Shown here: piece by piece, positions 12,516 through 47,391 of the stretch
How positions within the stretch are numbered: position 1 is the first letter of the stretch
How the letters are laid out: each line of letters begins with the position of its first letter
Virus record (IMG/VR): IMGVR_UViG_3300034069_000585
Location: 1-47,391 of that record
Source: a virus
DNA: 47,391 bases
Direction: 5' to 3' (one strand)
Program-made: the position numbers and the translations under genes
The notes under the pieces: generated by a model
What the model saw: only the letters and a program-made list of their open reading frames with translations
The model's database searches: none
What the model was told of the DNA's origin: nothing

Positions 12516-12606
12516 TGTGAAATCTCCGCGTTATGGTGTTGCAACTAACGTAATATGGTCATAAGAGGGTTTCGCAACACATGCAACCCCATAGGAGCGC
12601 AAACCG
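12516..12606. promoter_or_regulatory. divergent control region with face-to-face promoter candidates and GTTGC-type repeats
   Basis: Leftward: TTGCAT (12586-12581), 17 nt, TATGAC (12563-12558). Rightward: TTGCAA (12539-12544), 16 nt, ATAAGA. Also the palindrome GTTGCAAC plus GTTTCGCAAC and ATGCAAC. Confidence 0.4.
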
Positions 12607-13788
12607 ATGGCATCTAAACCCGACGATCTGCCGATGCTGGCACTGATCGAAACCCCGAACATTCCGACCCCGACCGTTGACGATCAGGCGCGTGTCGTGC
12701 TGCTCGACGGCGAGGCGTTCGACGCCTTCTACGCTCGCATGAAGGCCGAGACGGACAAGCACGTCCCCGACGTGACGACGGACAAGGGGCGCAAGGCGGT
12801 GATCGCGCTCGCCCGGCGCGTGACAACGACCAAGACGGCCATCACGGCGGCGGCGAAGGGCCTGACCGAAGCGTGGCGTCAGCAGACGGCGACGGTGAAC
12901 GCGGCGCGCAAGCCGATCGAGGAGAAGCTAGCGGAACTGGCGGCCGAGGTGCGCCGGCCGGTGACGGAGTGGGAGAACGCGGAAGCGGCGCGCATCAAGC
13001 GCAACTTTGACGTGGTGGACGACATGCGGCAGGCCGCTATCGTCACGCTCGACGACACGGCTGTTTCGGTCGAGGAGCGCGGCCGGCGCATCCATGGGAT
13101 TGTGATCGGCGAAGGTTGGCTCGACGGCGAAGCTGCTGAGGCTGTCGCGGTCAAGGCGGCCACGGTGCAGGCGCTGGTTGCCGCGCGCAACCGCTTGCGG
13201 CAGGAGGAAGCCGACAAGGCGGAACTCGCGCGGCTGCGGCAGGAAGCCGAGGAGCGCGCCGCGCGCGAGGCGGAGGCCCAGGCGGCACGCGAAGCCGAGG
13301 AAGCGGCCCGGCGTGCGGAGGAAGAGCGCCTTGCTGCGATCGAGCGCGAGAACGAGCGCCAGCGTCAGGCGGAGGCAGCGGAGGCCGAGCGGCTGGAGCG
13401 CGAGCGGGAACAGGCAGCAGAGCGGGCGCGGATCGCCGCCGAACAGGCCGCCGAGGCTGCGCAGCGCGAGCGTGACGCGGAACACGAACGCCAGCTCGCC
13501 GCCGAGCGCGCAGAGCGCCAGCGGATCGAGCGGGAGGCGCAGGAGGAGCGCGATCGGGCTGCACAGGCCGAGCGTCAGCGGCAGGAGGCGGAGGCCGCCG
13601 CGCAACGTGAGCGCGAGCGCATCGCCGCCGAGGACGCGAAGCGCGCCGCTAACCGCGCGCACGTCAGCAAGGTCATGGGCTCGGCGAAAGAGGCGATCAT
13701 GACGTGCGGAGTCACTGAGGATCAGGCGCGGTCGATCGTGACGGCGATCAAGGCCGGGTTGGTGCCCGCCGTGACTATTCAGTTCTAA
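12607..13788 (+). CDS. hypothetical protein of the recombination module with a ~155-aa E/R/A-rich helix
   Basis: 393 aa with AGGAG before the ATG. It occupies the position taken by DUF1351-type accessory proteins next to RecT. Residues ~195-350 are almost only E, R, A and Q. Confidence 0.7.
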   Translation: MASKPDDLPMLALIETPNIPTPTVDDQARVVLLDGEAFDAFYARMKAETDKHVPDVTTDKGRKAVIALARRVTTTKTAITAAAKGLTEAWRQQTATVNAARKPIEEKLAELAAEVRRPVTEWENAEAARIKRNFDVVDDMRQAAIVTLDDTAVSVEERGRRIHGIVIGEGWLDGEAAEAVAVKAATVQALVAARNRLRQEEADKAELARLRQEAEERAAREAEAQAAREAEEAARRAEEERLAAIERENERQRQAEAAEAERLEREREQAAERARIAAEQAAEAAQRERDAEHERQLAAERAERQRIEREAQEERDRAAQAERQRQEAEAAAQRERERIAAEDAKRAANRAHVSKVMGSAKEAIMTCGVTEDQARSIVTAIKAGLVPAVTIQF

Positions 13789-16324: not shown

Positions 16325-16593
16325 CCGACCAGTCCCCAGCGGCGCTATTCCAGCGCCGCGACCGGCTTGCGGCGGAGTTGCGCGAGGTGGACGCCTGCCT
16401 CGACGCGGCCCGCCGCAGGTGGAGCGAGCAGCAGGGCTATCTAATGCCCGTGCGATCTGAGGTGTTCAGACAGGAGGTGGAGCATGATCGGATATCTACG
16501 GCGCAAGCTGGCGCTCTGGCGGATGCATCGCCGGATCAACGCGGCGGAGGCGGCCCACGGGCCGGCAGTCGACCGCATCCTCGACGCCCGTGA
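16321..16593 (+). CDS. hypothetical protein (90 aa; only the first ~55 codons look selected)
   Basis: ATGA overlap at the start. GC3 is about 85 percent over 16321-16380 and falls to about 55 percent where it overlaps the next gene. Confidence 0.45.
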   Translation: MTDQSPAALFQRRDRLAAELREVDACLDAARRRWSEQQGYLMPVRSEVFRQEVEHDRISTAQAGALADASPDQRGGGGPRAGSRPHPRRP

Positions 16594-16717
16594 TCGGCTG
16601 GAAATGATGGCGGAGGAGCGGCGGAACAGTCCGGCGATCCGCCAGTATCGGAAGCGACGCGCGGCGGCGATCAAGAACCGGCCGCCGCGCCCGCCACGGG
16701 TCAGCCGGCGCGCTTGA
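16484..16717 (+). CDS. hypothetical basic protein (77 aa)
   Basis: Strong Shine-Dalgarno AGGAGGTGGAGC before the ATG. GC3 is about 95 percent over 16501-16560. Confidence 0.6.
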   Translation: MIGYLRRKLALWRMHRRINAAEAAHGPAVDRILDARDRLEMMAEERRNSPAIRQYRKRRAAAIKNRPPRPPRVSRRA

Positions 16718-16871
16718 CGATCTGCCGCAGGGCTTCGGCCTCCAATGCCTCCCCCAGCGCTTCCTTGGCGGACGCTGGGGTTATTTTTTCCTTCGCCGCT
16801 GCCTTTCCGAGCGCGGGCAGGACGATGCGCTTGAGGGCGAACCGGGCGATGATGCCGATGGGCAGTTTCAT
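16701..16871 (-). CDS. small protein at the end of the lysis cassette (56 aa)
   Basis: MKLPIGIIARFALKRIVLPALGKAAAKE... ATGA overlap with the upstream stop. Its 3' end overlaps the convergent plus-strand gene by 17 nt. Confidence 0.45.
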   Translation of the reverse strand: MKLPIGIIARFALKRIVLPALGKAAAKEKITPASAKEALGEALEAEALRQIVKRAG

Positions 16872-17179
16872 GCGCTCTTGCCTCCCACCACGACAGCGAT
16901 GCTGTCGTCGACGTGATCGGCGATCTGCGCCGTCGTCTGCTTGGCACGGAGCGACAGCAGCGCCCGCCAGCCGCTCGCCAAGATCGGCAAGGCGATAGCG
17001 AGGAACGTCGCGCCGTCCGACGACTGGAGCCATTGCAGGATTGCGGTGAGGTCGTGCGCTCCAATCAGCTTGATCAGGATCGGCAGCGCGGCGGCGATGA
17101 CCAGCACGTCACGCGCGAGGGTGCCGGCGATGGCCGGCCCGGCGCTGGCATTGACGACGATCGGGGTGGGTTCGGTCAT
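16868..17179 (-). CDS. membrane protein of the lysis cassette (holin-like, 2-3 TM)
   Basis: 103 aa with AAGGAA Shine-Dalgarno. Hydrophobic helices VLVIAAALPILIKLIG and FLAIALPILASGW. Immediately downstream of the endolysin. Confidence 0.6.
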   Translation of the reverse strand: MTEPTPIVVNASAGPAIAGTLARDVLVIAAALPILIKLIGAHDLTAILQWLQSSDGATFLAIALPILASGWRALLSLRAKQTTAQIADHVDDSIAVVVGGKSA

Positions 17180-17197
17180 GATCGGTTCCTTTCGCTC

Positions 17198-17803
17198 CTA
17201 TGCGCTGTATCGCGCGGCCTCTGCGGCCCGGCGTCGGGTCAGCCCCGCCATCACCTTGCCGTCATTCTTGTTCCAGGCGGCGAACTGCGCCTTGGCAGCG
17301 GCATAGTCCCCGGCGAGGTGACGGCGCAACAGAGTGCTGTCTCCCAAGCCCTCGGCCTTGCCGTTGTTGTTCATATCGAGGCCGACGTTGTAGGCGAACG
17401 ACACCAGCGCGTCGAACTGACCTTGGGTGGCAGGCTGGCCCCGCAACAGCATGTTCACGCCCACCTCGACATCGCGAAGATCGCGGGCGAACAGCCGGTC
17501 AGCCTTCTCGCGCGTCCACACAGCGCCGAGCGGGATCGGTCCACCATTCTCGTCGCGCGTCGTGCCCCAGCCGTTCGTGACCGGCTTGCCGTCCTTGCTG
17601 CCGGGGTCAGGGTAGGATTTCAGCTTGAGACTTTCGAAGCTGTGGATCAGGTCAATACCCGCTTGACTGGTCGTCATGCCCGCGCGGCTGGCGGCGGCTA
17701 CGGTAGCGCCCACAGCGCGGTTGATCAGGTCCACGTCGGCTTGCGCCAGGGCGGAGCCCTTCACCTTGCGGATTGCGTCAAACAGGGCTTTGGGGTCGGT
17801 CAT
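17198..17803 (-). CDS. endolysin, GH24 (T4-lysozyme-like) muramidase
   Basis: IDLIHSFESLKLKSYPD...TNGWGTT...QFDALVSFAYNVG is the GH24 catalytic and fold signature. Confidence 0.85.
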   Translation of the reverse strand: MTDPKALFDAIRKVKGSALAQADVDLINRAVGATVAAASRAGMTTSQAGIDLIHSFESLKLKSYPDPGSKDGKPVTNGWGTTRDENGGPIPLGAVWTREKADRLFARDLRDVEVGVNMLLRGQPATQGQFDALVSFAYNVGLDMNNNGKAEGLGDSTLLRRHLAGDYAAAKAQFAAWNKNDGKVMAGLTRRRAAEAARYSA

Positions 17804-18312
17804 TCGTTCACTCCTCGCACGTTCGCCAGCCGGGCAAGGGCATGGCTGAATGGGTCTTCCGCGCCTAGCGCAGATGCCGCCAGCCCGATCAGCTCGCGGC
17901 TCTGGCCCACCGCCGGATTGCCGGGCGCGGCGGCCTCAAGCGCATTGGTCGACGTGACGGCGGCGTTCATCAGGAACGACATGGCCTGCCCCAGGCGGGA
18001 CAGGCGCTCCTCCATTCGATCGAACCGCGCCTCGACAGCCGCTTTCTCGGTCGCGATGAACTCGGCGGCGGCGGCCTTGTCGGCTGCGTCGGCGGCTCGA
18101 TCTTCGCGCTCGGTTTCGGCTCCGGACTTCTTCGCTGCCGCCCATTCCTTGATGTATTCGGGACCGCGCTTGACGATCCAAACAGTTGCGATGGCGACCT
18201 GAATTAGCAGAATGCCCCAGATGCCATAGCTGCTCGGCGACCACCCGTGGATCGCTACCGGCACCAGTTCCTCGGCCGCCTTTGCAGCCGCTGGTTTCGC
18301 GGCCTCAAGCAC
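17800..18312 (-). CDS. TM plus coiled-coil protein (i-spanin-like architecture, unusually placed upstream of the endolysin)
   Basis: 170 aa with GTG start. One TM helix (IWGILLIQVAIATVWIV) followed by a charged helical region. Confidence 0.55.
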   Translation of the reverse strand: MLEAAKPAAAKAAEELVPVAIHGWSPSSYGIWGILLIQVAIATVWIVKRGPEYIKEWAAAKKSGAETEREDRAADAADKAAAAEFIATEKAAVEARFDRMEERLSRLGQAMSFLMNAAVTSTNALEAAAPGNPAVGQSRELIGLAASALGAEDPFSHALARLANVRGVNE

Positions 18313-18592
18313 TGCGGCGGACAGTCGAGCAGACGATCAGCATGTAGAGGCCGGCCGCGAAGGCGAACACCTGACACACCAACAGCGCGTCATTGTCGCC
18401 GGGCGCGAACGTCTGCGTCGCCGAATAGGTCAGCCGGTTCAGGCAGAGCAGCCACACCGCCGACATGACGCGCTCGCTCGGTTGCGCCGCGCTGCCCAGC
18501 CGCAGCGACTTGCGAAACGGCTTCCATAGGTACACCAGCAGCGCCACCCAGAGCAGACTAGTCAGCACCCGCATCACCTCCACTGAGTTCAT
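18305..18592 (-). CDS. small membrane protein (holin candidate)
   Basis: 95 aa with 3 predicted hydrophobic helices. ATGA overlap with the upstream stop. Confidence 0.6.
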   Translation of the reverse strand: MNSVEVMRVLTSLLWVALLVYLWKPFRKSLRLGSAAQPSERVMSAVWLLCLNRLTYSATQTFAPGDNDALLVCQVFAFAAGLYMLIVCSTVRRSA

Positions 18593-19053
18593 AGATCGCC
18601 CTTTCCAGCGCGCCCCAGCATATCAGCAGGATGTGATACGCTCCGATCAACGCTATAATAGCGCCGATGAAGCGCATAAAGGTAGCCCCCTGTTAAAACG
18701 ACGAGTTGCCCCCACGCCGTATATGACAATTGCCAGTAATAGGCCCACTGCGGCACTTCACCTTGATCAGTGAAGAACCCGTAATGCGCGTGCGCTATCA
18801 GTTGGATTGCGTAGATCGCAACGACGAAAATCTGCGTACGCGTTCGCCGCATCGCGAATATCGCAATCGCGGAAAGGTAGTCCGTGATCGTTGAGAACAG
18901 CCATGGGAAAGGATCGCCTGAGAACCATCCCATGAAAAGATTGGCGGACCAGTTGGCGAGCAGGATCGCCACTGTTCCCGTCAGCCATTTGCAGTCGGAA
19001 ACGAGGCCGACGATCAGCAGCATCAGCATGGCCGACAGGAACAGCAGCACCAT
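18589..19053 (-). CDS. polytopic membrane protein (154 aa, 4-5 TM), lower GC than surroundings
   Basis: MVLLFLSAMLMLLIVGLV... The first ATG is at 19053 and a GTG lies at 19056. The stretch is AT-richer than neighbouring genes. Confidence 0.6.
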   Translation of the reverse strand: MVLLFLSAMLMLLIVGLVSDCKWLTGTVAILLANWSANLFMGWFSGDPFPWLFSTITDYLSAIAIFAMRRTRTQIFVVAIYAIQLIAHAHYGFFTDQGEVPQWAYYWQLSYTAWGQLVVLTGGYLYALHRRYYSVDRSVSHPADMLGRAGKGDL

Positions 19054-19063
19054 CACCTACCCC

Positions 19064-19180
19064 TTACTTCGGGTCTTTCGGGGGCGGCGGGGGAGGCGGC
19101 GAGGTGTTGCCGCTGTCGGCGGTCTGGAAGCCGCCCTCCCCATTCTTCGGCTCGTGGGCCGGCTTCGGCTTGTCGGTCAT
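19064..19180 (-). CDS. small proline-rich protein (38 aa), first ORF of the lysis operon
   Basis: Not in the ORF track because it is under 60 aa. GGAGGA Shine-Dalgarno, 6 nt, then ATG. MTDKPKPAHEPKNGEGGFQTADSGNTSPPPPPPPKDPK. 35 of 38 codons end in G/C. Confidence 0.5.
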   Translation of the reverse strand: MTDKPKPAHEPKNGEGGFQTADSGNTSPPPPPPPKDPK

Positions 19181-19308
19181 GGCAGTCCTCCGTTGATGGA
19201 GGCGCAGCTATATCAGGGTTGCAGCCGTGTCGTCAGCGGGTAAAACGAGATGCGGGGGCGTTACCAGCGCCGCCCGCACTCTGACCCTCTCGTTTGGATG
19301 GAACGATC

Positions 19309-19797
19309 ATGGCTGCTCACCGCGATATTCCCCTGCTGCCTCGCGTGCAAGCGCGGTTCCATGCGCGCGTTGATAAGCGCGGGCCGGATGATTGTTGGGA
19401 GTGGCAGGGGTGCGTGGATAGCCACGGATACGGTAGGATATGCTTTCATCATGAAAAGCGACCATACAACGTAGGCTTGCATCAAATTGCCTTAATGGAC
19501 GCAGGGGTTGATAGGTCTAAGGGCGCGGGAGCGCTTCATTCGTGCGACAACCGGCTATGCTGCAATCCTGCCCACCTGAGATGGGGAACGCCCATGGACA
19601 ATCGGCGCGACGCTATGGAACGTGGACGCGTTGCGCAGGGGGAAACGCAGGCCCTAGCCGTTCTCACAGTTGATGCGGTTCGGGAAATACGGTCGGCGAG
19701 TGATAGTGTTTCCACGCTTTGCGCTCGTTATGGTGTGTGCGAGACCACAATATACAGCGTGCTTAGAAGGAAAACGTGGAAGCATATATCTGACTAG
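19309..19797 (+). CDS. free-standing HNH homing-type endonuclease
   Basis: 162 aa from ATG 19309. CWEWQG...GYGRI...HSCDNRLCCNPAHLRWGTPMDN plus a C-terminal HTH-like tail. GC is clearly lower. Opposite strand to all neighbours. Confidence 0.8.
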   Translation: MAAHRDIPLLPRVQARFHARVDKRGPDDCWEWQGCVDSHGYGRICFHHEKRPYNVGLHQIALMDAGVDRSKGAGALHSCDNRLCCNPAHLRWGTPMDNRRDAMERGRVAQGETQALAVLTVDAVREIRSASDSVSTLCARYGVCETTIYSVLRRKTWKHISD

Positions 19798-20552
19798 TTC
19801 CAGTCCCACATTGACAAAGACCACTTTGAATTGCGGGGGTCTATGCGCTCATAGGCCTCCAGCTTCCGCAGATTTCCCCAGTGTATCCGCTCGTTCAGCC
19901 CCTCCGTCTGCGCCGGGTTCTCGACCATCAGGAACGATCGCGTCGTGCGGAGTCGCTTGACGATCTGGAATAGCTGGCGGCGCTCGGCGTCCTGCAAATC
20001 GCCGAACGACCACTGATAGCCGGTCGTCGCCACGCCCTCGTCAATGCCGAAGCCGCCGCCGAACAGGCGCTCGACGCTGCCGGTGTCCTCGATCAGGCCG
20101 CCGCCGCCGCGCTCCTCGCCGTATTCGGTTTGGAAAGCGAGGCCATAGGCGAATGTGCCAACGTTGAAGCCGGCCCCGTTGCCATTGATCACCACGCGCA
20201 GGAACGCGGCGGACACGGGGGCGGCGAGCCGTGCCACGGTATGATATGGCGGGCCGTAGCCGGTCGGCTCCATCGACACGTTGCCGGTGTAATTGCCCGT
20301 TACGGTGCCGCCGATACCGTCGATTGCCTGGAACAGCGCAACCGCACCGCTACCTGCCGGTGCGCCGTGATAGCCAATGTAGAAGGTGTCGAAAGTGACG
20401 GTTCGCCCGAATGCTAAATCGAAGGATACGCCTACCTGATTGGCGGGGACGGCTATCGCCTCTTTCGGGTTCGGCGTGATCAGGCGGGACGCAGCCGCAC
20501 CGCTCGTTTGCGCTATGGGCTGCGGCTCTACAATTAGAATGCCCCGGCCCAT
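19794..20552 (-). CDS. tail-tip associated protein (252 aa)
   Basis: Last gene of the tail block, with a TAATG overlap upstream. The FLRVVINGNG...FAYG segment resembles a discoidin/galactose-binding-like sandwich. Confidence 0.55.
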   Translation of the reverse strand: MGRGILIVEPQPIAQTSGAAASRLITPNPKEAIAVPANQVGVSFDLAFGRTVTFDTFYIGYHGAPAGSGAVALFQAIDGIGGTVTGNYTGNVSMEPTGYGPPYHTVARLAAPVSAAFLRVVINGNGAGFNVGTFAYGLAFQTEYGEERGGGGLIEDTGSVERLFGGGFGIDEGVATTGYQWSFGDLQDAERRQLFQIVKRLRTTRSFLMVENPAQTEGLNERIHWGNLRKLEAYERIDPRNSKWSLSMWDWN

Positions 20553-37548: not shown

Positions 37549-40500
37549 TCATGCGGTGATCGCCACGCTGTCCTGATAGGCCAGGGCCTTGGTATAGCCC
37601 TTGTCGCCGACCAGAACGAGATTGACGCCCAGCTTCTTGTTCACGTTCGCGCTGGTGAGCGCCAGCGACCATCCCGATTGCCCCGAGATAGGCACGCCGT
37701 CCAACGTCCACTGAATTTGAAACGATCGCGTGTTGAAGGCCGGTGGCACGTCCAGTGTGACGGTCTGCCCGGCGGCGCGGGTGCCAAGGATGCGGATGCT
37801 CGCGCCGTAGCGAATATATGGCGGGAACACTCCATCGTAGGCGTCGAGATAGGCGTCCATCTTCGGCGCTTCGGATCGTGGCTGGCCCAGATATTCAATC
37901 AGCCCCCATGCACCGGATTGGCTCGTCGCGATCATCGAAATCCAGTGGTAGTGATAGAAGGGCACGGTGCGGCCGAACCCATGAATGCGCTGAAACTCGC
38001 CGAGATAGTAGCCGTACAGCGCCTTCATCTCGGGCGAACGCTGGCGGCGGCGGGCGTTGGTGATATCGCTGTCGAGCGCATGCTGCCCGACTTCGTATGT
38101 CTCGACGGCGATGCCCTTCGGCGTGGCGATCTGCTTGTGCGCGGCGACCACTTCCATCTGCGCGTTGATGTTCTTGTACGCGCCGTCGACATAGACCGCA
38201 TCGTCGGGCTGGTTGAAGGTCGGGTTGAAATAGGGCGCGATGAACACGGCGCTGATCACGTCCTTCGTCATGCCAGGATAGTTCAGTATCTGCGCCGTCA
38301 CCGAGGGGTTCGCGGCCATTGAGCCCATGCCGGTCCGCACCTTAGCGCCGAACGTCTGCTTGAGCGCTGCGAAGATCGGGCGGGCGCGGTAGCACGACTC
38401 GTCGATCGATTGTGCCAGAATGTTCGTCTCGGTCGTGCCGCGATAGACGGCCCACGCGCCGTACCAAAGCGAGCCGGGAAACGCCAAGTTGAAGGCTTCG
38501 TTGCCATGCTCGGCGCGGCATACCTTGCCGGTTACGTCGGTCACGATCTGGATAGCACGGGTGGCGAAATCTGGCGTGCAGTTGACGTGCAGATTGATAT
38601 ACGGCTCAAGGTTCGCCCGCTTGAACAGGTCCGCTAAGTCTTCGAACGTCACCCGCGCCGGGTCAGCGTCGACGCCATCGCGCAGGTTCGTCTTCGCCAT
38701 TGGCGGGACGGTATCTACCGTAGCCAAGGGAGGAGTGGGGATCGGTCGCGGTTCGTAATCGCCAATATCGAAAAGCTCGACAGTCTCCGGCGTCGACTTA
38801 AGCAAGTTGATGACGCTTTGCACCGTTCCGGCCGATGGCGGCGTGATGATGACGTTCTGATCATTGATAGTGATTGAGCCGCTACCCGACGCAGGCAGGA
38901 CCGTCACGCTCCAGTTGTTGCCCTTGCTGCCGTACCAGTGACGATTGGGCAGGTATTTGGCGATGAACGTATGGGAGGCATACGGCCTGATGTTGAGCGC
39001 AAGCCGCCGCGTGGAATTGCTCGTCGGGATAAAAATGCGGGCGTTACGCGGGAACAGGCCGAGCGGCTTCTGACGGCGGTTCTTCCATTCGAGAATTCCG
39101 TTATCGAAGCCGGTGTAGTAGGAGTTGACGCCCAGCAGGTCCATGAACCGCGTGAACTTCCATTGTGACACGGCAGTCACATAGGCCGGGTGCCACGTCG
39201 TCTGATCGATGTACGGGCCGCCACGGGTGGCAATCTCGGAACACCAGATGTTGCGAACCGGGTTGGCGGGGCTCCACGTCGATTTCGGTACGCTGACATA
39301 GAGCGCGTCGGCGTTCGCCTTGAGGTTGAACTCGATCGAACTTCCGTTGCGGACCAGATTGCTGGTGTTGCGCGCCAGATCGGAAATGGTGACGCTTGCC
39401 GGGTCGCCGTCCCAGCTCAAGCGGACAAGGCAATCTTCGGCAACCGGGTCCATCTTGATCAAGTACGTGTTCACGCCATCCTCGAATGAGAGGATGTCGC
39501 CGGTAAGCGTATCGATGTAGGGCGCGTTTGCGGCATCGTACCCCCCCCTTCCATACCCATCGCCGCGCCAATAGGTCGCCGCGAGGTTGTTGTAGGGCCG
39601 AGGATGGCCGGCGACGTTGATGCCCCAGGTCGTCTTGTCGGTGACGACATATTCGGTCGGCAGGGCGACGGCGCTATTCCCGCGCTGGACGATCGTCGCG
39701 GGAAGCGTCGTGCCGGCGAACTGCGTCGACACGGCGGCATCGGGGATCGTGATCTTGGCCCGACCGGGGCGCAGGTTTTCGGTAAGGCTGCACGCCACGA
39801 TTGAGCCATCCGGCAGGCGCGCGTCCCACCCCTGGATGCTTTGCCCGACTGCATTCGAATAGCCGATATGGATGTCGGCTCCGCGCCCTGCGAAGTGCGG
39901 CTCCACCGCCAGGATGCGGAGCGGAGCGCCGCCGCTGGAGGAGAACGTCGTCTTGATGTTGTCCGTACCGCCGCCCTTCACGTAGCGCGCGAAGCGGCCC
40001 GGTCCGCCGGGGAACATGGTGGCGACGACTTCGGCGACGATGCGGTGAACCTGCACGTCGTTGATGAAAAACAGGATCACTCCTTCATCATCGCGGTATT
40101 GCGCGGTGAACCGATCCTGTTTGGTCAGAGCCTTGCCGTAATTCATCACCGCGTTCGCACCGGGCAGCAACGTCCACTTGCCCCCGACCGGGTAATAGAA
40201 CTGCTTGTATTGGCTGTTGCCGATGTTGTCGACGCGCAGGCCGAACGAGGGTGTGACGCTGCCTACGTCGCAATACATGTACAGGGTGCCGGCATGGTTC
40301 AGCGCCCCGGTGTCGCCGTCGACAGCCGGCGCGGTGGCAAACGTGCCGAAGATGCTTTCCAGGTCCTGCCAACCGGTATCGGTGACGACTTGCGGGCCGA
40401 CCGTGCGGACGATCGAGGGATTGGAAATGACGGTGACAGGGGCCGGCACGCCCGCCTCAAGGGCGGTGACGCGCTTCTCGTCCGCTGTGATTTGCGCTTC

Positions 40501-40590
40501 CTGCGCCGCGATGATGGCCTCTGCGGCATCAAGTGCCGCCTTCCATGCGGCCTCGGCGGCGGTCAGGGTCGCGGAAAGATCGAGTGCCAT
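37549..40590 (-). CDS. large fibre/spike-like protein with a probable clan GH-A glycoside hydrolase domain (1013 aa)
   Basis: N-terminal coiled coil (...EKRVTALEAGVP). The C-terminal third has EHGNEAFN (acid/base-like NE) and VETYEVGQH (nucleophile-like E) in a TIM-barrel-like spacing. Confidence 0.6.
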   Translation of the reverse strand: MALDLSATLTAAEAAWKAALDAAEAIIAAQEAQITADEKRVTALEAGVPAPVTVISNPSIVRTVGPQVVTDTGWQDLESIFGTFATAPAVDGDTGALNHAGTLYMYCDVGSVTPSFGLRVDNIGNSQYKQFYYPVGGKWTLLPGANAVMNYGKALTKQDRFTAQYRDDEGVILFFINDVQVHRIVAEVVATMFPGGPGRFARYVKGGGTDNIKTTFSSSGGAPLRILAVEPHFAGRGADIHIGYSNAVGQSIQGWDARLPDGSIVACSLTENLRPGRAKITIPDAAVSTQFAGTTLPATIVQRGNSAVALPTEYVVTDKTTWGINVAGHPRPYNNLAATYWRGDGYGRGGYDAANAPYIDTLTGDILSFEDGVNTYLIKMDPVAEDCLVRLSWDGDPASVTISDLARNTSNLVRNGSSIEFNLKANADALYVSVPKSTWSPANPVRNIWCSEIATRGGPYIDQTTWHPAYVTAVSQWKFTRFMDLLGVNSYYTGFDNGILEWKNRRQKPLGLFPRNARIFIPTSNSTRRLALNIRPYASHTFIAKYLPNRHWYGSKGNNWSVTVLPASGSGSITINDQNVIITPPSAGTVQSVINLLKSTPETVELFDIGDYEPRPIPTPPLATVDTVPPMAKTNLRDGVDADPARVTFEDLADLFKRANLEPYINLHVNCTPDFATRAIQIVTDVTGKVCRAEHGNEAFNLAFPGSLWYGAWAVYRGTTETNILAQSIDESCYRARPIFAALKQTFGAKVRTGMGSMAANPSVTAQILNYPGMTKDVISAVFIAPYFNPTFNQPDDAVYVDGAYKNINAQMEVVAAHKQIATPKGIAVETYEVGQHALDSDITNARRRQRSPEMKALYGYYLGEFQRIHGFGRTVPFYHYHWISMIATSQSGAWGLIEYLGQPRSEAPKMDAYLDAYDGVFPPYIRYGASIRILGTRAAGQTVTLDVPPAFNTRSFQIQWTLDGVPISGQSGWSLALTSANVNKKLGVNLVLVGDKGYTKALAYQDSVAITA

Positions 40591-40611
40591 ATGCGGTCCT
40601 TTAGAAAGGGT

Positions 40612-40631
40612 GGGCGGCGCTAAGGCCGCCC
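40612..40631 (-). terminator. hairpin between the two giant genes (weak terminator or attenuator)
   Basis: GGGCGGC-6 nt-GCCGCCC, followed on the minus strand by ACCCTTTCT. Confidence 0.35.
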
Positions 40632-40637
40632 GTTAGG

Positions 40638-43382
40638 TCAGCGCTCGTAACAACCTGCCGCACCAGTGCCGTCAGCAAGGCGGGCTTTGCCGTCCAGATC
40701 ATAGCTGAATACAGCGCCGGATACCGTGTCGGTGAACGCCTGATTGAACGCGGCGAAGACTGCCGGCACGCGGCTCGAAAGCGTGTTGGTGGTGCTGGCA
40801 AGGTGATAGTCGCCGCCGCCCGGATAGGTGGCCGCATCGTTGCGCAGCGCCTGATAATTGACGAACAGTGCCATGATATCCGAGAACGTCGACGACACCT
40901 GATACGTCGAATAGTCCGGCTCCCAAGCCATACCGAGATAGCTTGCCGCCAGATTGGGCGCGCTGCCGCTTAGCGACCCGAACAGCGAGATATTCGACCG
41001 CAATCCGACATGATAGCCGTAGCGCCAGTTGCCCGTATTGCCGGGATAGCCGGGGCTGAAACTATCGGTCTTGAGATTGTAATTCCCATAGACCGAGCCG
41101 ATGGACACGCCTTCCTTCGGCACGCCACGCATCGCCGACGTATCCGCGTACATGCGGCTACCACGGTTGCCGACGAATGTATTGTGCATGTCCAGCAGCT
41201 CGTAAACCGATGCCGTGGTGCCGTCTGCCGCCATGTTGAAAGCGACGATGCCGGAACCATTGCCGCGTGGTTCGCCAAGATTGTTAGCGATGACGGTGGG
41301 ACGGGTCTTGGACAGCAGGCTGAGCGCCGGTCCGACCTGATAGCGCCACTCGTTGGCGACCCAGAAATAGCCATCGGTGTATGCCGGCATCGACGTAGTA
41401 GCGTCGGTTGGCGTCGACGACCGATTAGCCACGAAGATTTGCGCGGCAGACGGATCACCTCCCTGCGGCTGCACATTGCCTAGCGCCAGCGCCATGCCCT
41501 GCACCGTCGTGCCGCCCGAAACCATGTTCAGGACGTTGCCGAGGGTCGAAGTGACGTTGCTGCGATACTGGATGCTCCAGCCCCGGATGCCTTCACCGCC
41601 AGCGATGTTGAACCCGGCGGATGGGGCCTCATAGATGCAGCTTTCCAAGCTAAGCATGGACGCATTCGACGCGGCGTCGCCATCTTGGAAAGTCGTCTGG
41701 TTTGTACCGCCCGGCTTGATCGTCAGGCCGACAGCGCGGGTCATAGACGGGATATTGATCACCGTTCCCTTGCCGGTCCACTTCACGGGTGCCGTGACGG
41801 CAGGGTCAGCCAAGATTTCGCACCATGTTGCGCCCGGAGCAGAGGCATTCGAGATGTTGGCAGTCGGCCCGTACTCGATCGTGGTCCCGCTGTTGTTGCC
41901 CAGGTAGATGCGGCCGCCGGCATAGTCGTCATGACCGCGCGCAGCGTTATAGGCCCGGATGCCTGCGAATGCGGCTTGGACCGTCGAGTAGGGGGTCGAC
42001 TTCGCAGCCGCCAAGGTCGACGCGACAGCGCCCGTGCCGGTCGCGTTGGCATCCAGATACGCTACGCCGCTGTAGGTGCCTGCCTTGTCGTTGAAAAACC
42101 GCAAGCGGGTATGCGGGGTGGCGTCCACGATACGGGTCAGGCCCGTGTAGAGGCCGTCGACCGACAGGTCGTACACCGCGCTCGCGTCACCGATCCACGG
42201 ATAGACCTTGGCATTGGCATAACACAATTCGCCCTGCGCCAGCGCCGTGACAGGGATCGTCGCCTTGAACGCCTCGACCTTCGGCGCGCCGGTGGCCGTC
42301 ACGAAAGCGGAAAGGCTGGTAGCAACCGCTGTCCGCTCCGCCGACACATTGCCGGTCGTGTCCCGCGCCTGGAACTTGATGCCGGCCACTTGCCGGCCAC
42401 CCATAGCGTGGCGATGAAAGGCGATCATCTCGACCGGGAAGTCGCCGGTTGCCCGCAGATGCTGGTGGTTGAGCCAAGTTGCGGTCGGCTTGCGATAGGC
42501 ATAGGTGGACGCGTTGGTCAGCGTCGATGCCGACGACGCATTCGATACGGCGCTACCGTTGGTATAGAAGCCCGCCGCAACCTTTGCGGACACGATGGTA
42601 GTGCCGGCGTAGATCACATCGGCCAGAGCGATCAGCACCACGAAATCGCTGCCGGATTGCGTGATGAAACGGCCATTCACGTCGGTCGATGCCGTCTTGT
42701 ACTGCTTGCGCATCAAGGCGCGGCCCTTGATCTTGCGATAGACGGTGGTCGCCACGATCGCACCGCCGCTGTCGCGGAAGCCGGGGTCGCTGACCAGCAA
42801 CTCCAGCTTTTGACAGTTGAAGAACCCGTCGCTGGTGTTGTCCGCAGCGGGTGCGGTCATGCCCTTGATCGTCACTTCGGCGACCCAGCCGTTGCCGTCA
42901 ATGCCGACCGCAGGAGAGCCGCTGTCTGGGTCCATCTGGGTAGCGTCACGGACGCGGAAAGCGGTCATGTCGCCAGCGGCCGACGAAACCGACGAGATGA
43001 CAACGCTAGTCGCCATGGTGGACGCGCTGCCGCTGCTGTCCGTTACGGTGATGACAAGGCCGCTCATGGTGCCTGCGACAGTCGGCGTGCCGGTGATCGC
43101 GCCCGTGGTGGTGTTGAACGACAGGCCGCCGAGCAGCGTACCCGACGACAGCGTGAAAGCCTTGGTGCCCGAACCCTTCGCCACGGTCGGCGTGAAGCTG
43201 TAGGCGGTGCCGACCTGTCCGGTCGTCGGCGGCGTGCCGGTGATCGTCACCTTGTTCGCATTTTCCAGCGCGGAGATGCGGGCGAGCGCTGCGTTCAGGT
43301 CGTTGCGCAGCGAGGAGGTGGAAGCGCGCGCCGTGGGATCGCCGCCGATCGTGTCAATGATGGTGCTGGTAATTTCGGTCAT
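40638..43382 (-). CDS. large tailspike-like protein: N-terminal coiled coil, He_PIG-type Ig domain, beta-helix-like body (914 aa)
   Basis: ITGTPPTTGQVGTAYSFTPTV...GLSFNTTTGAITGTPTVAG is the putative-Ig (He_PIG) motif. The remainder is G/N/S/T-rich and repetitive, as in parallel beta-helix depolymerases. Confidence 0.65.
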   Translation of the reverse strand: MTEITSTIIDTIGGDPTARASTSSLRNDLNAALARISALENANKVTITGTPPTTGQVGTAYSFTPTVAKGSGTKAFTLSSGTLLGGLSFNTTTGAITGTPTVAGTMSGLVITVTDSSGSASTMATSVVISSVSSAAGDMTAFRVRDATQMDPDSGSPAVGIDGNGWVAEVTIKGMTAPAADNTSDGFFNCQKLELLVSDPGFRDSGGAIVATTVYRKIKGRALMRKQYKTASTDVNGRFITQSGSDFVVLIALADVIYAGTTIVSAKVAAGFYTNGSAVSNASSASTLTNASTYAYRKPTATWLNHQHLRATGDFPVEMIAFHRHAMGGRQVAGIKFQARDTTGNVSAERTAVATSLSAFVTATGAPKVEAFKATIPVTALAQGELCYANAKVYPWIGDASAVYDLSVDGLYTGLTRIVDATPHTRLRFFNDKAGTYSGVAYLDANATGTGAVASTLAAAKSTPYSTVQAAFAGIRAYNAARGHDDYAGGRIYLGNNSGTTIEYGPTANISNASAPGATWCEILADPAVTAPVKWTGKGTVINIPSMTRAVGLTIKPGGTNQTTFQDGDAASNASMLSLESCIYEAPSAGFNIAGGEGIRGWSIQYRSNVTSTLGNVLNMVSGGTTVQGMALALGNVQPQGGDPSAAQIFVANRSSTPTDATTSMPAYTDGYFWVANEWRYQVGPALSLLSKTRPTVIANNLGEPRGNGSGIVAFNMAADGTTASVYELLDMHNTFVGNRGSRMYADTSAMRGVPKEGVSIGSVYGNYNLKTDSFSPGYPGNTGNWRYGYHVGLRSNISLFGSLSGSAPNLAASYLGMAWEPDYSTYQVSSTFSDIMALFVNYQALRNDAATYPGGGDYHLASTTNTLSSRVPAVFAAFNQAFTDTVSGAVFSYDLDGKARLADGTGAAGCYER

Positions 43383-43943: not shown

Positions 43944-44810
43944 CTATCGGCGCACGACTTGCCGCACGTTACGACCGATCTCGTCCAGCGTCCTGCCGCT
44001 GATCACGGCGTCCCATATGTCGCGGCCGGCGCGCTCGGTCTGGATCGGGTTGACCGGGGGCAGGCCGGGAAGGCGGGGCTGCGGCGTGCCGTCCGATCCG
44101 GTCGGCCGGTTCGTCTCCTCGACCATCGCCGCCAGTTGCTGCCCGATCGGCGCGGACGGCGGGGCGAACACGGGCGGGCCAAGTCGCTCGATCCGCCATG
44201 CGAGTTCATCTTCCGACGTGATGCCGTCGCGGTAGCGGGCGAGCTGAGATCGCGACATCTGCCCGACGCTGCACCGGCAACGGAAGCCGAGCGGGGGCCA
44301 GTAGGTGCGCCAGAACGGATGGCTGACCGGCAACACGATGCCGTCCCAGGCGCGGTGATCTTCCTCGCTCTTCGGGGGGTGCCGCACGCGGCTATCGCCG
44401 ACCGTGAACGCGCGCAGATACGGATACAGGCCCTCGCTTGCCTGGACGTGGTTCCAGCGCCCCGCCGCGCGCGCCAGCCGCAGGTTCGTGTCGTAGATCA
44501 GCCGCACCCGATTGCCGATCTTGCCCTCGTCGCCGCCAAGCCAACCCTTTTCCTTGAGGATCGGCATGACCAGCTTCGCGAAGTCCTGCTCGCTCCCGCT
44601 GCGCTCAACCACATCGACCATGGCGTAATACAGGTCGTCGGCGATGTCGGTCCCGGCCGTCTGCGCGGCGGTGAAGGCGCGGGCATATTCGTCGCTGCCG
44701 ATTTCGTCGAACATGCCGATCGCGCGCGGTTCCTTGCCGAGCAGCCATTCGAGGATGTCGGGTGCCGCCAGTTGCAGCGGATAGAGCGTGGCGGGTGATC
44801 GCGTGGGCAT
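43944..44810 (-). CDS. head morphogenesis protein, MuF / SPP1 gp7 family
   Basis: 288 aa. RLIYDTNLRLARAAGRWNH...HRAWDGIVLPVSHPFWRTYWPPLGFRCRCSV is the Phage_Mu_F core. Confidence 0.85.
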   Translation of the reverse strand: MPTRSPATLYPLQLAAPDILEWLLGKEPRAIGMFDEIGSDEYARAFTAAQTAGTDIADDLYYAMVDVVERSGSEQDFAKLVMPILKEKGWLGGDEGKIGNRVRLIYDTNLRLARAAGRWNHVQASEGLYPYLRAFTVGDSRVRHPPKSEEDHRAWDGIVLPVSHPFWRTYWPPLGFRCRCSVGQMSRSQLARYRDGITSEDELAWRIERLGPPVFAPPSAPIGQQLAAMVEETNRPTGSDGTPQPRLPGLPPVNPIQTERAGRDIWDAVISGRTLDEIGRNVRQVVRR

Positions 44811-44827
44811 GGCCCCAGATACAGCAA

Positions 44828-44853
44828 CGGCCGCCCTATCGCTAGGGCGGCCG
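44828..44853 (-). terminator. 11-bp GC-rich hairpin with GNRA loop directly 3' of the tRNA-like element
   Basis: Minus strand reads CGGCCGCCCTA-GCGA-TAGGGCGGCCG then TTGCTGT. It ends 17 nt before the MuF ATG. Confidence 0.45.
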
Positions 44854-44857
44854 GTGG

Positions 44858-44935
44858 TGGCGGGCCGGTCAGGACTCGAACCTGCATTTCCGGGAGTGGC
44901 CCCGGCGTCCTTATACCGTTTGAACGACGCGACCC
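44858..44935 (-). ncRNA. tRNA-like element or degenerate tRNA (non-canonical anticodon arm)
   Basis: Minus strand: GGGTCGC...GCAGGTTCGAGTCCTGA CCGGCCC G CCA. It has a perfect T-loop GGTTCGAGTCC, a 6/7 acceptor stem, a 4-bp D stem with GG in the loop and an encoded CCA. The anticodon arm is 16 nt (5-bp stem, 6-nt loop) and there are mismatches at 7:66 and 49:65. Confidence 0.4.
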
Positions 44936-45022
44936 ATTTACCCGCTGCCCTGCAATCGCATCACCGATCACCACAGGGCAGCGAGTTGCGCCGTGTTATG
45001 GGGGCGGCGTCCCCCGGTCAAG

Positions 45023-45172
45023 TCAGCAGGTTCGGTTTTCACCGGGTCGGGGCGTGCAATCGTCCTGATTGGGCGGGGAATGCGTCGGCGTCGGCGCGGG
45101 CTGGGGCCGCTTGTCGTCGCAGGCAGCGACCATCGAAACGGCGAGAATGAGGAGCGCAAAGGGGAGGCGCAT
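45023..45172 (-). CDS. small proline-rich lipoprotein (49 aa precursor), moron-like
   Basis: AGGAGA, 6 nt, ATG at 45172. MRLPFALLILAVSMVAAC has a signal peptide with lipobox VAAC. The mature 32 aa contain 9 Pro and 2 further Cys. Confidence 0.6.
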   Translation of the reverse strand: MRLPFALLILAVSMVAACDDKRPQPAPTPTHSPPNQDDCTPRPGENRTC

Positions 45173-45232
45173 CGGTCTGTCTCCTGTCGCGGGGTGCGAC
45201 GCGGTGACGATGCCTTGCCGGGATGCGATAGG

Positions 45233-45270
45233 CAAGCAAAAGGCCCCGCCATAAGGGGATGGCGAGGCCT
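45233..45270 (-). terminator. intrinsic terminator T2 downstream of the portal gene
   Basis: Minus strand reads AGGCC.CGCCAT-loop-ATGGCG.GGCCT then TTTTGCTT. Confidence 0.55.
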
Positions 45271-45352
45271 TCCGCGAGGAACACCGGGGAGGTGTTGGCA
45301 ATGGTATGCGCTCGGCGTTATGAGCCGTCAAGCGCCGTCAGAACCTGCCGGA

Positions 45353-45390
45353 CAAGAGAAAGGCGGCACCCCCTGCAAGGGATGCCGCCT
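45353..45390 (-). terminator. intrinsic terminator T1, about 50 nt after the portal stop
   Basis: Minus strand reads AGGCGGCA-(inner CCC/GGG)-TGCCGCCT then TTCTCTTG. Confidence 0.55.
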
Positions 45391-45437
45391 CAACTGGCGT
45401 TCGAAAGATGCGCGCAGCCCCTATGCGCCGGCTGCGA

Positions 45438-47391
45438 TCAGCCGTCAACCCGATCTTCCAGCCCGATCGCCGCCGCGCCGCGCTCCGCCAGCAAGGGCAG
45501 TGCCAGCGCCTTCGCCAGCGCGGACGGATCGAACCGCTCGACCGCCTCCAGCAACGCGATCCGCGCGCCTTCGATGGTTGTCACGCCCTGCATGTTGCCG
45601 CGCATCGCGTTGCCGATGGCTTCGAACAGCGGGGATGCGTCACCGGCCGACGCCTCAATCAGGCGGTCGATCGCGTCCTGATCTTCGGCGGAGAAGGCGT
45701 GGAACTCGTCGCCGGCAGGCTTGTCGATTGCCTCGAATATCTCAGGGCCGAACTTGAGTGCGCCGATGAACGGCTCGACCTTGGAAAGATCGAAGTCGGC
45801 TGGCACGTCGTAGCTGATCGTGATGTGCGGCTTGTAATCGGGATAGTCCGACGACGCGCCGCGCTCAATCATACCTTCGTGACGATACCGCAGCGATGTG
45901 TCGGTGAAGCGCAGCACGATCGCATCGCCGAACCGCTCAACGAAGCGCGGCCCGCCCTCGGCCACTTCCAGCGCCGCCCAATCCCAGCCCTCGCCGGCCA
46001 TGCCAAACCAATCGACCGCCGCTTTAGAATAGAGAACGGTGACATGCAGATCATCGGCGGGGACGGTTGGCGTCAGGCCCTGCGCCTTTGCCCAAGCGAT
46101 AAGGGGACCAGGATTGAGCAGTTTGCGATGCACGTAGAGCGGTGCAAACGAACTACCGCCTTGCGCCGCGAACTCAGCGATCTGGCGTTCGCTACGGTCG
46201 GGCCGCTGCCCGGCCTTGGCGATCACAAGCGCCGCATCCCGCTTCGCCTGTTCCTCCGTCGAGACGCGATCGACCTCGTAGCCATCGCCGTACACCTCCG
46301 CGACGCTTTCCTCAGTCCGCTTGATGCCGATGCCGTTCAGCTTCACGTCGCGCTCGGCCACCGTGGACATATCCTCCGCGTCGTCCAGCACGCGATAGAC
46401 GGTCGGCGGGGCCACGTCCGGCCCATGGTTCCAGAGCGTGACCCACCGCGCGAAGGTCCGGTTGATCGCCTCGGAAATCAGATCGCTGTCGGCCTTGACG
46501 ATTTCCGCCTTGACGCTGGCGTGTTCGGTCGCCTGATTGTTGTTCAGGCCCGACGACACGCCCTTGGTTGTGCCGGCCTGCCCCAGCACGACGCGCATGG
46601 TGGCCTCCTCGGCCCACTTGACCATTTCGTCATACGACGCGGCGCTCGATCCGCTGCGCGTCGCCTCCATGATCTTGATGCGCTCGTTCTTGATTGTGCC
46701 CTCCGGCAACAGCACGGCGCTATCCCGGCCGACCGCGACCGCCGCCTGTAGCAACTCGGCCTTGCGCTTGCCGTCGCCCTTCTCCGCCTCCGTGAACTCG
46801 ATCGCGACAGTCGGTTGCCCCAGCTTCTCAAGGAACAGGGACCAGAACTTGAGGCCAGCGCGCTTGAAGAACACGGGCCAATAGAGCCAATGCCCCAGCC
46901 CCAGGCCATAGAAGGCGAAATCGTGCGTGCCGCCGGTGCGAACGGTCAGGAACTTGTTCGGCAGCAGCGTTTCGCCCGACAGCCCACCGCCGATGCGCGA
47001 TACCATCCGCAGCTCGCCCTTGAGCGTGAAGCCGAACCAGCGGCGATCGGGGATCACCACGTCGTCCAGCCACACGATCGGACGGCCGTCGTGATCCTTT
47101 GTCGTCCAAATCGCCTCCGCCACCGCGTAGCCGAAGAACACGGCGTAATGCAGCAGGCCGGTGATGCGGTCGAACCCCACCTGCTTGAGCATGTCGCGGA
47201 ACTGCTCGGCCGCCAACACGGAGCGCGGATCATCCTTGTCGCCCGGCGCTACCTCCCAATCCCGCGACGTGATCGCAAGCCGGCGCTGTTGCAGCGTCGA
47301 GAACACGGTATCGTCGGACAGAAGCTGCTCGTACAGCTTCAAGCCCTCCGCGCCCTTGAGCAACATCGGATCGTCGTTCTGCGCCAGCGCG
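45438..47391 (-). CDS. portal protein (Mu gp29/DUF935-like) fused in frame to a C-terminal 2H phosphoesterase domain; main part of the junction-spanning gene (715 codons in total)
   Basis: The frame is open from the window end to the stop at 45438. The N-terminal ~400 aa look portal-like (position after terL, size, DUF935-like pattern). The C-terminal part is described as a separate feature. Confidence 0.8.
   Translation of the reverse strand, partial: ALAQNDDPMLLKGAEGLKLYEQLLSDDTVFSTLQQRRLAITSRDWEVAPGDKDDPRSVLAAEQFRDMLKQVGFDRITGLLHYAVFFGYAVAEAIWTTKDHDGRPIVWLDDVVIPDRRWFGFTLKGELRMVSRIGGGLSGETLLPNKFLTVRTGGTHDFAFYGLGLGHWLYWPVFFKRAGLKFWSLFLEKLGQPTVAIEFTEAEKGDGKRKAELLQAAVAVGRDSAVLLPEGTIKNERIKIMEATRSGSSAASYDEMVKWAEEATMRVVLGQAGTTKGVSSGLNNNQATEHASVKAEIVKADSDLISEAINRTFARWVTLWNHGPDVAPPTVYRVLDDAEDMSTVAERDVKLNGIGIKRTEESVAEVYGDGYEVDRVSTEEQAKRDAALVIAKAGQRPDRSERQIAEFAAQGGSSFAPLYVHRKLLNPGPLIAWAKAQGLTPTVPADDLHVTVLYSKAAVDWFGMAGEGWDWAALEVAEGGPRFVERFGDAIVLRFTDTSLRYRHEGMIERGASSDYPDYKPHITISYDVPADFDLSKVEPFIGALKFGPEIFEAIDKPAGDEFHAFSAEDQDAIDRLIEASAGDASPLFEAIGNAMRGNMQGVTTIEGARIALLEAVERFDPSALAKALALPLLAERGAAAIGLEDRVDG
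45720..46148 (-). other. 2H phosphoesterase (LigT / 2',5' RNA ligase / Acb1-type) domain inside the portal ORF
   Basis: Two H-x-T-x motifs after hydrophobic strands: ADDLHVTVLYSK (His codon 46044-46046) and YKPHITISYD (His codon 45825-45827), 73 residues apart. It begins with an APLYVHRKL strand. Confidence 0.65.
47251..47391. repeat. terminal overlap copy B, identical to 1-141
   Basis: Same 141 bases as the window start. The portal reading frame runs straight through it. Confidence 0.95.

Follow-up and report, generated by a model that had tools for sequence, protein, structure and literature searches.

A conserved 49-residue lipoprotein gene in the portal-MuF slot of an uncultured phage is inherited independently of the lysis cassette

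The window, by which we mean the whole stretch of 47,391 nucleotides analyzed here, is a viral contig from IMG/VR that is complete, its ends overlapping by 141 bp. It encodes both terminase subunits, a Mu-type portal and a MuF-like minor head protein; the portal and MuF genes are separated by a gap of 627 bp, and inside this gap lies a short ORF on the minus strand, with its ATG at 45172 and its stop codon at 45025-45023. The terminase genes, the two flanks of the slot and the elements between them are as follows:

335-1729, minus strand: terminase large subunit.
1713-2093, minus strand: terminase small subunit.
43944-44810, minus strand: MuF-like minor head protein, the downstream flank of the slot (Pfam Phage_Mu_F, phrog_220).
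44818-44859, minus strand: a hairpin (44822-44859, U-poor tail) together with the motif CCGTTSSYGTATC, directly before the MuF start (fold, motif comparison).
44861-44934, minus strand: degenerate tRNA-like element (Rfam tRNA, 20.4 bits, below the gathering score of 29).
44940-44986, minus strand: strong hairpin without a U-tract (-32.8 kcal/mol, z -6.2).
44997-45022, minus strand: 26-nt element right after the stop codon of the ORF, starting with CTTGAC, which resembles a -35 box (comparison of relatives).
45023-45172, minus strand: gene for a 49-residue prolipoprotein, stop included (ORF read, purifying selection, homologues).
45180-45185, minus strand: Shine-Dalgarno sequence AGGAGA, 7 nt from the ATG.
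45214-45236, no strand assigned: perfect 6-bp inverted repeat with an 11-bp spacer, in the interval between the second terminator and the Shine-Dalgarno sequence (sequence).
45236-45275, minus strand: second terminator of the intrinsic type, lying 64 nt before the ATG (stem of 17 bp with a UUUUG tail; -31.3 kcal/mol, z -5.4).
45360-45391, minus strand: intrinsic terminator after the portal gene (-27.5 kcal/mol, z -5.2, U-rich tail).
45438-47366, minus strand: Mu-type portal with a C-terminal Acb1 domain, the upstream flank of the slot (Pfam/PHROG profiles).

The encoded peptide divides into a signal peptide, a tether and a loop:

45119-45172, minus strand: signal peptide (residues 1-17) and lipobox V-A-A-C, with Cys18 as the predicted lipidated residue (sequence read directly).
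45059-45118, minus strand: Pro-rich tether, residues 19-38, with 6 of the 8 mature Pro (in-frame indels).
45026-45058, minus strand: C-terminal Cys39-x9-Cys49 loop, CTPRPGENRTC (alignment of homologues).

The initial annotation of this DNA had described a short ORF with the ribosome-binding site AGGAGA, a signal peptide, a lipobox and two extra cysteines, and all of these are present exactly so. In the signal peptide, called together with the lipobox by a rule-based scan, Arg2 is followed by a hydrophobic stretch of 15 residues, and the lipobox occupies residues 15-18. The part beyond the lipid Cys comprises 31 residues (about 3.4 kDa) with 8 Pro and 2 Cys, Cys39 and Cys49; the mature protein is thus Pro-rich as had been stated, but the count of 9 Pro in a 32-residue mature part is too high, 9 being the number in the whole precursor. 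Longer ORFs starting at TTG codons (45331 or 45235) were considered and rejected; they extend across the terminators and lack conservation. The diverged homologue in the related contig L015 has GGAGG at a comparable spacing from its start codon.

A strict scan for a lipobox plus a Shine-Dalgarno sequence in all six frames of the genome returned this ORF alone. Second-order Markov simulations of the window yielded a mean of 0.07 such ORFs per genome, and a genome with at least one arose in 4 of 60 simulations, so that about 7% of simulated genomes would hold a single ORF of this kind by chance. This figure lends something to the idea that the ORF is a chance reading frame without function in a structured intergenic region, as do its shortness, which places it under the cut-offs of gene callers, and its position amid hairpins. 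The comparison of relatives, all of them metagenomic, is far stronger evidence for a gene than the scan. The ORF is maintained on more than 10 contigs (IMG/VR, JGI), several of them with identical or nearly identical copies and others with variants at 54-76% identity (L006 and L014, 76%; P0002, 73%; L015, 54%). Between the window and L004, its codons differ by 6 synonymous and 0 non-synonymous changes. Across about 10 relatives, dN/dS for the mature part is 0.02-0.1, with dS saturated; it is 0.09-0.10 for the window against L006 and L015, where dS is about 1-1.8. For the last 20 codons it is 0.02-0.08 overall and 0.03-0.08 in these two comparisons. Differences in length among the homologues are all multiples of 3. 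Given this pattern of substitutions by codon position, these in-frame indels and values of dN/dS down to 0.02, the chance reading seems to us extremely improbable and, as far as sequence comparison can decide, already effectively refuted. The same data indicate that the ORF is a genuine gene, translated and under strong purifying selection.

Selection is distributed unevenly along the peptide. The signal peptide has a dN/dS of about 1, and its basic N-terminus and hydrophobic core are still kept in every variant. The lipobox is kept in all homologues as VAAC, LAAC, VTAC or LSAC. The tether varies in length from 20 to 31 residues, and the loop CTPRPGENRTC is invariant apart from an R to Q change in L005 and a T to S change in L006. 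Low dN/dS in the mature part, the retained lipobox and the in-frame indels together suggest an exported lipoprotein in which the C-terminal loop is the constrained functional part.

Searches for a wider family gave little. The lipoprotein had no significant match in Pfam, PHROGs, NCBIfam or PDB sequences; a match to TrbK-alt (E 0.09, 13 bits against a cut-off of 33) covers residues 6-36, mostly signal peptide. A word-indexed search of 5.8 billion proteins recovered near relatives alone, and a profile HMM run against 1.84 billion representatives recovered only P0002 and one spurious repeat protein, an artefact. Nothing was found by tblastn in 50,697 records of cultured phages, nor by scanning the alignment against 185,579 prokaryote species, each represented by a single genome. 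The ESM Atlas returned generic small-lipoprotein look-alikes with scores below 0.9, a range that shuffled sequences also reach. By these searches, the lipoprotein appears to be a new orphan family that lies outside every known family searched.

A 2.6-kb contig carrying the lysis cassette is binned in a Burkholderiaceae MAG, and among 301 genomes of that MAG's order the MuF homologues are only 33-41% identical; the bin therefore does not give the host. No cultured phage has a MuF protein of more than 36% identity.

The two intrinsic terminators on its upstream side isolate the lipoprotein gene from the portal transcript. The initial annotation had placed the gene between terminators; this holds for the upstream side, where both hairpins carry U-tracts, but not for the downstream side, where the hairpins lack a U-tract or have a U-poor tail. 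No sigma-70-like promoter was found between the terminators and the ORF, as judged against the sigma-70 consensus. The inverted repeat at 45214-45236 may be an operator or promoter element; when it was sought genome-wide as a regulon motif no other copy appeared, and with a single copy in the genome it gives no basis for inferring a regulon. Beyond the stop codon, the 26-nt element differs at only 1-3 positions among the window, L003-L005 and L006, a higher conservation than the ORF has at its synonymous sites. ARAGORN called no tRNA in the tRNA-like element at 44861-44934, and L006 has an intact tRNA-Met where the window has this relic. Each related genome has a single copy of the CCGTTSSYGTATC motif, and in every case this copy stands right before the gene next after the lipoprotein cassette.

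We compared the content of the slot across relatives, the distant ones being gathered by an alignment-based search with MuF. In L035-L037, whose portal is 38% identical to that of the window, the portal and MuF genes abut and the capsid module follows directly after MuF, so that the unbroken arrangement is represented. L031, with a portal of 62% identity, has a gap of 770 nt between portal and MuF without the lipoprotein. In G003 (portal 43%, MuF 56%), the slot holds a lipoprotein gene followed by an intact tRNA-Met, with only about 35 nt from the upstream hairpin to the lipoprotein ATG. The complete genomes G006 and G007 (portal 44%, MuF 55%) each have a small Pro-rich lipoprotein of their own in this slot: that of G006 has two extra Cys and is adjoined by a small secreted protein, and that of G007 has neither extra Cys nor Cys loop, its end falling at the point where the loop would start. 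Homology between the G007 protein and the L015 lipoprotein is detectable (37% over 51 residues, pairwise E 5e-6). Other small ORFs are the cargo in L031 and L033, and the contents also vary in L034 and L006; what adjoins the lipoprotein gene differs, being in some a tRNA-Met, in others the relic of a tRNA or further small exported ORFs. The whole cassette, trailing hairpin and CCGTTSSYGTATC motif included, stands in L015 before a tape-measure-like ORF and not before MuF, which argues that the cassette is mobile.

The position of the lipoprotein gene is conserved across phages with portals only 43-44% identical, and the mature head of the protein diversifies between sublineages. The slot comparisons point to an old, mobile and fast-diversifying accessory gene of a cargo hot spot, not a core gene. 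The initial annotation had likened the gene to a moron, and the adjacency of portal and MuF in L035-L037, together with the variable cargo of the slot, bears this out. Like the morons of lambdoid phages as Hendrix conceived them, the lipoprotein gene is inserted between genes that are adjacent in relatives, and it is bracketed by hairpins or terminators and accompanied by variable cargo such as a tRNA. Unlike them, it has no recognizable promoter of its own and, with a GC3 of 0.78, does not differ in composition from the genome around it. The search for a lysogeny module turned up none, so that nothing supports its expression on its own from a prophage.

Phages rarely carry lipoprotein genes, and where such a gene occurs it usually passes for a marker of spanins. 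Given that the peptide is short and Pro-rich, the question is whether it could be the outer-membrane spanin subunit (o-spanin) missing from the lysis genes, which lie elsewhere in the genome:

16868-19056, minus strand: five-gene lysis module (domain and TM calls; no lipobox ORF inside).
17800-18312, minus strand: 170-residue protein with a TM segment and a long helix, the proposed inner-membrane partner (i-spanin); no Cys.

The module encodes a multi-TM protein of 155 residues, a TM protein of 95 residues, the TM+helix protein of 170 residues, a GH24 endolysin and a 2-TM protein of 103 residues. AlphaFold2 models the 170-residue protein with a helix at 27-127 that includes the TM segment and two short C-terminal helices (pLDDT 75); in this model the protein looks like an i-spanin, and a Foldseek search of the model against BFVD was uninformative (best E 0.47). 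The annotation had seen no lipoprotein partner in the lysis cassette, and indeed loose and strict scans of every frame of the lysis region (16400-19300) revealed no lipobox ORF. It had also put the lipoprotein gene about 27 kb from the lysis cassette; our coordinates place it 27 kb from the candidate partner, and no TM protein is encoded near the slot.

In the proposal of a displaced o-spanin, the lipoprotein would be the outer-membrane subunit and the 170-residue protein its inner-membrane partner, encoded 27 kb apart; the C-terminal loop would contact the partner's C-terminal helices, and the two Cys would link the protein covalently into the homodimers that membrane fusion requires. Several observations speak for it: this is the sole convincing lipoprotein ORF in the genome, its short Pro-rich mature part resembles Rz1, and the candidate partner has the architecture of an i-spanin and is free of Cys. 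In a census of spanins, the commonest combination was 0 Cys in the i-spanin and 2 in the o-spanin, and pairs more than about 1 kb apart would have escaped detection (PMC6139136). With this combination of Cys and this blind spot in the census, the idea is a legitimate one.

The likeness to Rz1-type o-spanins extends to several features. Compared with Rz1 of phage lambda (PMC6139136), the peptide is also a SPII lipoprotein, with a mature part of 31 against 40 residues and 8 against 10 Pro; as in the Rz1 type generally, there is no predicted secondary structure, there are periplasmic Cys, and a Cys-free TM+helix protein is encoded in the lysis cassette. It differs in that its gene is not embedded in, overlapping or adjacent to the i-spanin gene, and in that it lacks a penta-proline block, matches none of the o-spanin families and has an Asp adjoining the lipid Cys. 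This Asp is found in every homologue, at +2 (window, L015, G007) or at +3 (P0002, G003, G006). In E. coli and other enterobacteria, an Asp near the lipid Cys is a signal for retention in the inner membrane through avoidance of the Lol system, which would count against an outer-membrane protein. The E. coli rule may not apply to the host of this phage and is not confidently transferable, so that the Asp is only a weak point on sorting.

For spanin subunits that interact, one expects linked genes and joint divergence, and it is on linkage and co-inheritance that the displaced o-spanin fares worst. The largest separation of spanin genes on record is about 1 kb (PMC6139136), against 27 kb here, with no type-II membrane protein near the slot. 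The genome G001 (99% complete) is collinear with the window, with 86-97% nucleotide identity over most genes, and its lipoprotein is 100% identical; the block matching 17196-19816 of the window is replaced there by an analogous cassette with an endolysin of another type. The TM+helix analogue in that cassette, the putative partner, is only 24% identical to the 170-residue protein (pairwise E 0.004), although it keeps a similar extreme C-terminus, a point in favor of the o-spanin. Conversely, G004 shares no structural gene with the window and has the whole five-gene lysis module at 35-65% identity, including a TM+helix protein 65% identical to that of the window, and no lipobox ORF or credible lipoprotein ORF was found in its 33 kb (85% complete). 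The complete genomes G006 and G007 have slot lipoproteins, and their lysis cassettes hold no TM+coiled-coil gene of the i-spanin kind. The distribution of the lipoprotein within the clade is patchy as well.

The lipoprotein and the TM+helix genes thus assort independently, which disfavors the o-spanin reading; on these comparisons, the lipoprotein is inherited independently of the lysis cassette. The initial annotation had proposed an Rz1-type o-spanin, and of this proposal the composition stands (lipobox, Pro-rich part and 2 Cys opposite a Cys-free partner) and the linkage and co-inheritance do not. All told, we judge a displaced o-spanin to be unlikely. One version of it would accommodate the unlinked inheritance: a true o-spanin, separated by 27 kb, that rides with the head module while interchangeable TM+helix partners ride mobile lysis cassettes. 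This arrangement strikes us as improbable. If it were true, it would be the first case of a two-component spanin whose genes lie physically apart; docking through the loop would have to be generic, tolerating partners only 24% identical to each other, and the linkage rule that lies behind the annotation of spanins would be broken.

A second reading of the gene as a lysis gene dispenses with the partner altogether. The lipoprotein could destabilize the outer membrane autonomously, as the colicin release (lysis) proteins do, acting as infection closes and with no inner-membrane partner. It belongs to the size class of the colicin lysis lipoproteins, its gene is oriented like the late genes, and these phages are without canonical spanins; one Atlas match to colicin lysis lipoproteins has a score of 0.84, below the reliable range and within the range of shuffled sequences. 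There is no match to the Pfam family Lysis_col, and the gene is missing in L031 as well as in G004, the phage with the same lysis cassette. We regard this possibility as highly unlikely.

A lipid anchor, a tether that is flexible and varies in length, and an invariant Cys-flanked loop together suggest a membrane-tethered constrained peptide. Our analysis makes it more likely that the lipoprotein is an accessory envelope-binding protein than that it is the missing outer-membrane spanin. Specifically, we tentatively propose, at somewhat less than an even chance, an accessory lipoprotein whose disulfide loop would be held out to a target in the host envelope, in the manner of exclusion proteins. 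After export by Sec and processing by Lgt, LspA and Lnt, Cys18 would be lipidated and the peptide anchored on a periplasm-facing leaflet. The extended Pro-rich tether of 20-31 residues would hold out the 11-residue loop, closed by a disulfide between Cys39 and Cys49, and the constrained loop would bind a conserved component of the host envelope. Infected cells and their debris would then become refractory to further adsorption or DNA entry. The outcome would be superinfection exclusion or receptor masking like that of T5 Llp, Cor or Rtp45, achieved through a much smaller and unrelated peptide.

Llp, Cor and Rtp45 are periplasmic exclusion lipoproteins; Llp and Cor have an intramolecular disulfide. 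Both Llp and Rtp45, small domains of about 60 residues in the mature form with an extensive interface to the receptor, distort outer-membrane receptors from the periplasmic side (PMC9586334, PMC12685063). Like Llp (T5), Cor (T1, phi80) and Rtp45, the window peptide would be a small periplasm-facing phage lipoprotein with a Cys pair able to form an intramolecular disulfide; like theirs, its gene is accessory, diversifying fast between lineages and conserved within them, and such genes can occur in phages without recognizable lysogeny genes. It differs in being about half the size, with a tether and an 11-residue loop, and in having no sequence similarity to them; neither sequence nor profile searches detected similarity to Cor, Llp, Rtp45 or another family.

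The neighborhood differs too. The genes of known exclusion lipoproteins adjoin the gene for the receptor-binding protein. Here, the lipoprotein gene is 21 kb from the tail-tip gene, and in G001 two giant depolymerase-like proteins encoded 1.6 kb downstream are swapped while the lipoprotein is still identical. Membership in the Cor/Llp group, which had been suggested as an alternative to the spanin, is therefore not supported, with no sequence or profile similarity, about half the size and no adjoining receptor-binding gene; the general mode of action alone stays plausible. No integrase, repressor or lysogeny genes were found in the phage. If there is exclusion, it would therefore operate in the lytic cycle, as it does in T5, and expression from a prophage cannot be assumed. 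Other observations count against the exclusion reading: the G007 homologue has no Cys loop at all, no sigma-70-like promoter was detected ahead of the ORF, and in G003 hairpin and ATG are only about 35 nt apart.

The anchor, the flexible tether and the small, extremely conserved and constrained loop could also serve to inhibit or modulate a host enzyme or a defence in the periplasm, with the loop acting as a substrate-like or inhibitor-like peptide and not in exclusion; a periplasmic protease, a cell-wall enzyme or a defence sensor located in the envelope are examples of targets. The small secreted protein beside the G006 slot lipoprotein would fit, and the phage carries other counter-defence cargo: the Acb1 domain fused to the portal, Lar, and a TGT/DpdA-like gene. 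There is no similarity to known inhibitor families, so that the architecture is the whole basis of this idea, and the loss of the loop in the G007 homologue tells against it too. We consider an inhibitor rather unlikely, and less likely than the exclusion-type lipoprotein that we prefer; a small share of the probability falls to none of the readings named here.

If the lipoprotein serves exclusion or targets the envelope in another way, its size would be below that of Llp, Cor and Rtp45, and it would be a natural ligand of the "tethered cyclic peptide" kind for an envelope protein of bacteria. Its practical value is limited for now. What the comparisons describe is a minimal lipoprotein, under strong selection, that recurs in a fixed slot of the head module across an uncultured clade and has no genetic coupling to the lysis genes. 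Whichever function proves right, it counsels caution against naming orphan phage lipoproteins o-spanins on composition alone. Orphan lipoprotein genes have been listed in 31 genomes of "spanin-less" phages (PMC6139136). Like them, the lipoprotein gene of the window has no closely linked gene for a type-II inner-membrane protein and no canonical spanin pair accompanies it; those orphans are listed only, whereas here there is evidence on selection, synteny and uncoupling from lysis.

The lysis genes of the window were compared with those of its collinear sister phage, G001, and of G004, a phage that has no structural genes in common with the window:

Window 16868-19056, five-gene lysis block encoding, in order, a multi-TM protein, a TM protein, a TM-plus-helix protein, the endolysin, and a 2-TM protein
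G004, locus L023, about 11024-13058, lysis block counterpart
G001, locus L017, 9882-12163, lysis block counterpart

The lysis blocks of the window and G004 share 35-65% amino acid identity in phages that are otherwise unrelated. In the sister phage, an analogous set replaces the first four genes of the block, including an endolysin of a different type; the gene at the end of the block (103 aa) is the sole one retained, at 98%. This block of five lysis genes behaves like a mobile unit. None of the lysis cassettes of the window, G004, and G001 contains a canonical spanin pair.

Two relatives with a small lipoprotein in the portal-MuF slot, G006 and G007, encode a second, larger lipoprotein together with a 75-79-aa protein:

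G006, locus L042, 2195-2614 and 1959-2198, second lipoprotein and 75-79-aa protein gene
G007, locus L044, 18737-19114 and 19111-19338, second lipoprotein and 75-79-aa protein gene

The mature part of this lipoprotein is Ala-rich, about 110-125 residues long, and probably helical, and the gene for the 75-79-aa protein comes next after it in both genomes. The pair lies just past the lysis cassette and a zinc-finger-like gene of divergent orientation, and may be connected with lysis. No counterpart of this pair exists in the window.

Around the window's own 49-aa lipoprotein gene, and in related phages, the portal-MuF region holds the following:

Window 44818-44859, GC-rich hairpin, then CCGTTSSYGTATC, then an ATG 6-9 nt on (one site per related genome)
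Window 44861-44934, degenerate tRNA-like element
Window 44997-45022, 26-nt element directly 3' of the lipoprotein stop codon, with CTTGAC at its start
G003, locus L006, 4221-4297, intact tRNA-Met (CAT)
L031 1382-1588, L033 about 2360-2485, and L034 2973-3185, small, very basic ORFs with RSPF at the end

The hairpin, CCGTTSSYGTATC, and ATG occur together exactly once in each genome of the clade, always preceding the gene next after the lipoprotein cassette. In most genomes this gene is MuF; L033 has a secreted ORF there, and L015 has one that is tape-measure-like. The site may represent a conserved terminator together with a context for translation initiation; alternatively, it may serve in processing. 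The 26-nt element contains a G5/C5 palindrome. When the window is compared with G003, it has diverged less than the synonymous positions of the lipoprotein ORF. It may be an RNA element, or it may act as a promoter from which the tRNA or the genes 3' of it are transcribed.

The stretch 3' of the lipoprotein gene is hypervariable: the window's degenerate tRNA-like element occupies the same place as the intact tRNA-Met of G003, is missing from L003, and has unrelated sequence in its place in L004 and L005. The RSPF-ending ORFs, found directly 3' of the portal gene in three relatives and absent from the window, are further variable cargo of the portal-MuF slot.

Other products of the window include the following:

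45438-47366, portal protein with a C-terminal Acb1 domain (anti-CBASS 2H phosphodiesterase; Pfam, E 4e-35)
37549-43382, two giant proteins (914 and 1013 aa) encoded between the MuF and capsid genes
10088-10786, 232-aa early protein matching phrog_887 (queuine tRNA-ribosyltransferase; E 6e-33)

The portal-Acb1 fusion is kept in G003, G006, and G007, where the portal alignments extend through the Acb1 domain. Between the window and G001, only N-terminal parts of the giant proteins are retained (71%, residues 40-115; 36%, residues 1-217); such divergence has the pattern expected of exchangeable receptor-binding or depolymerase modules.
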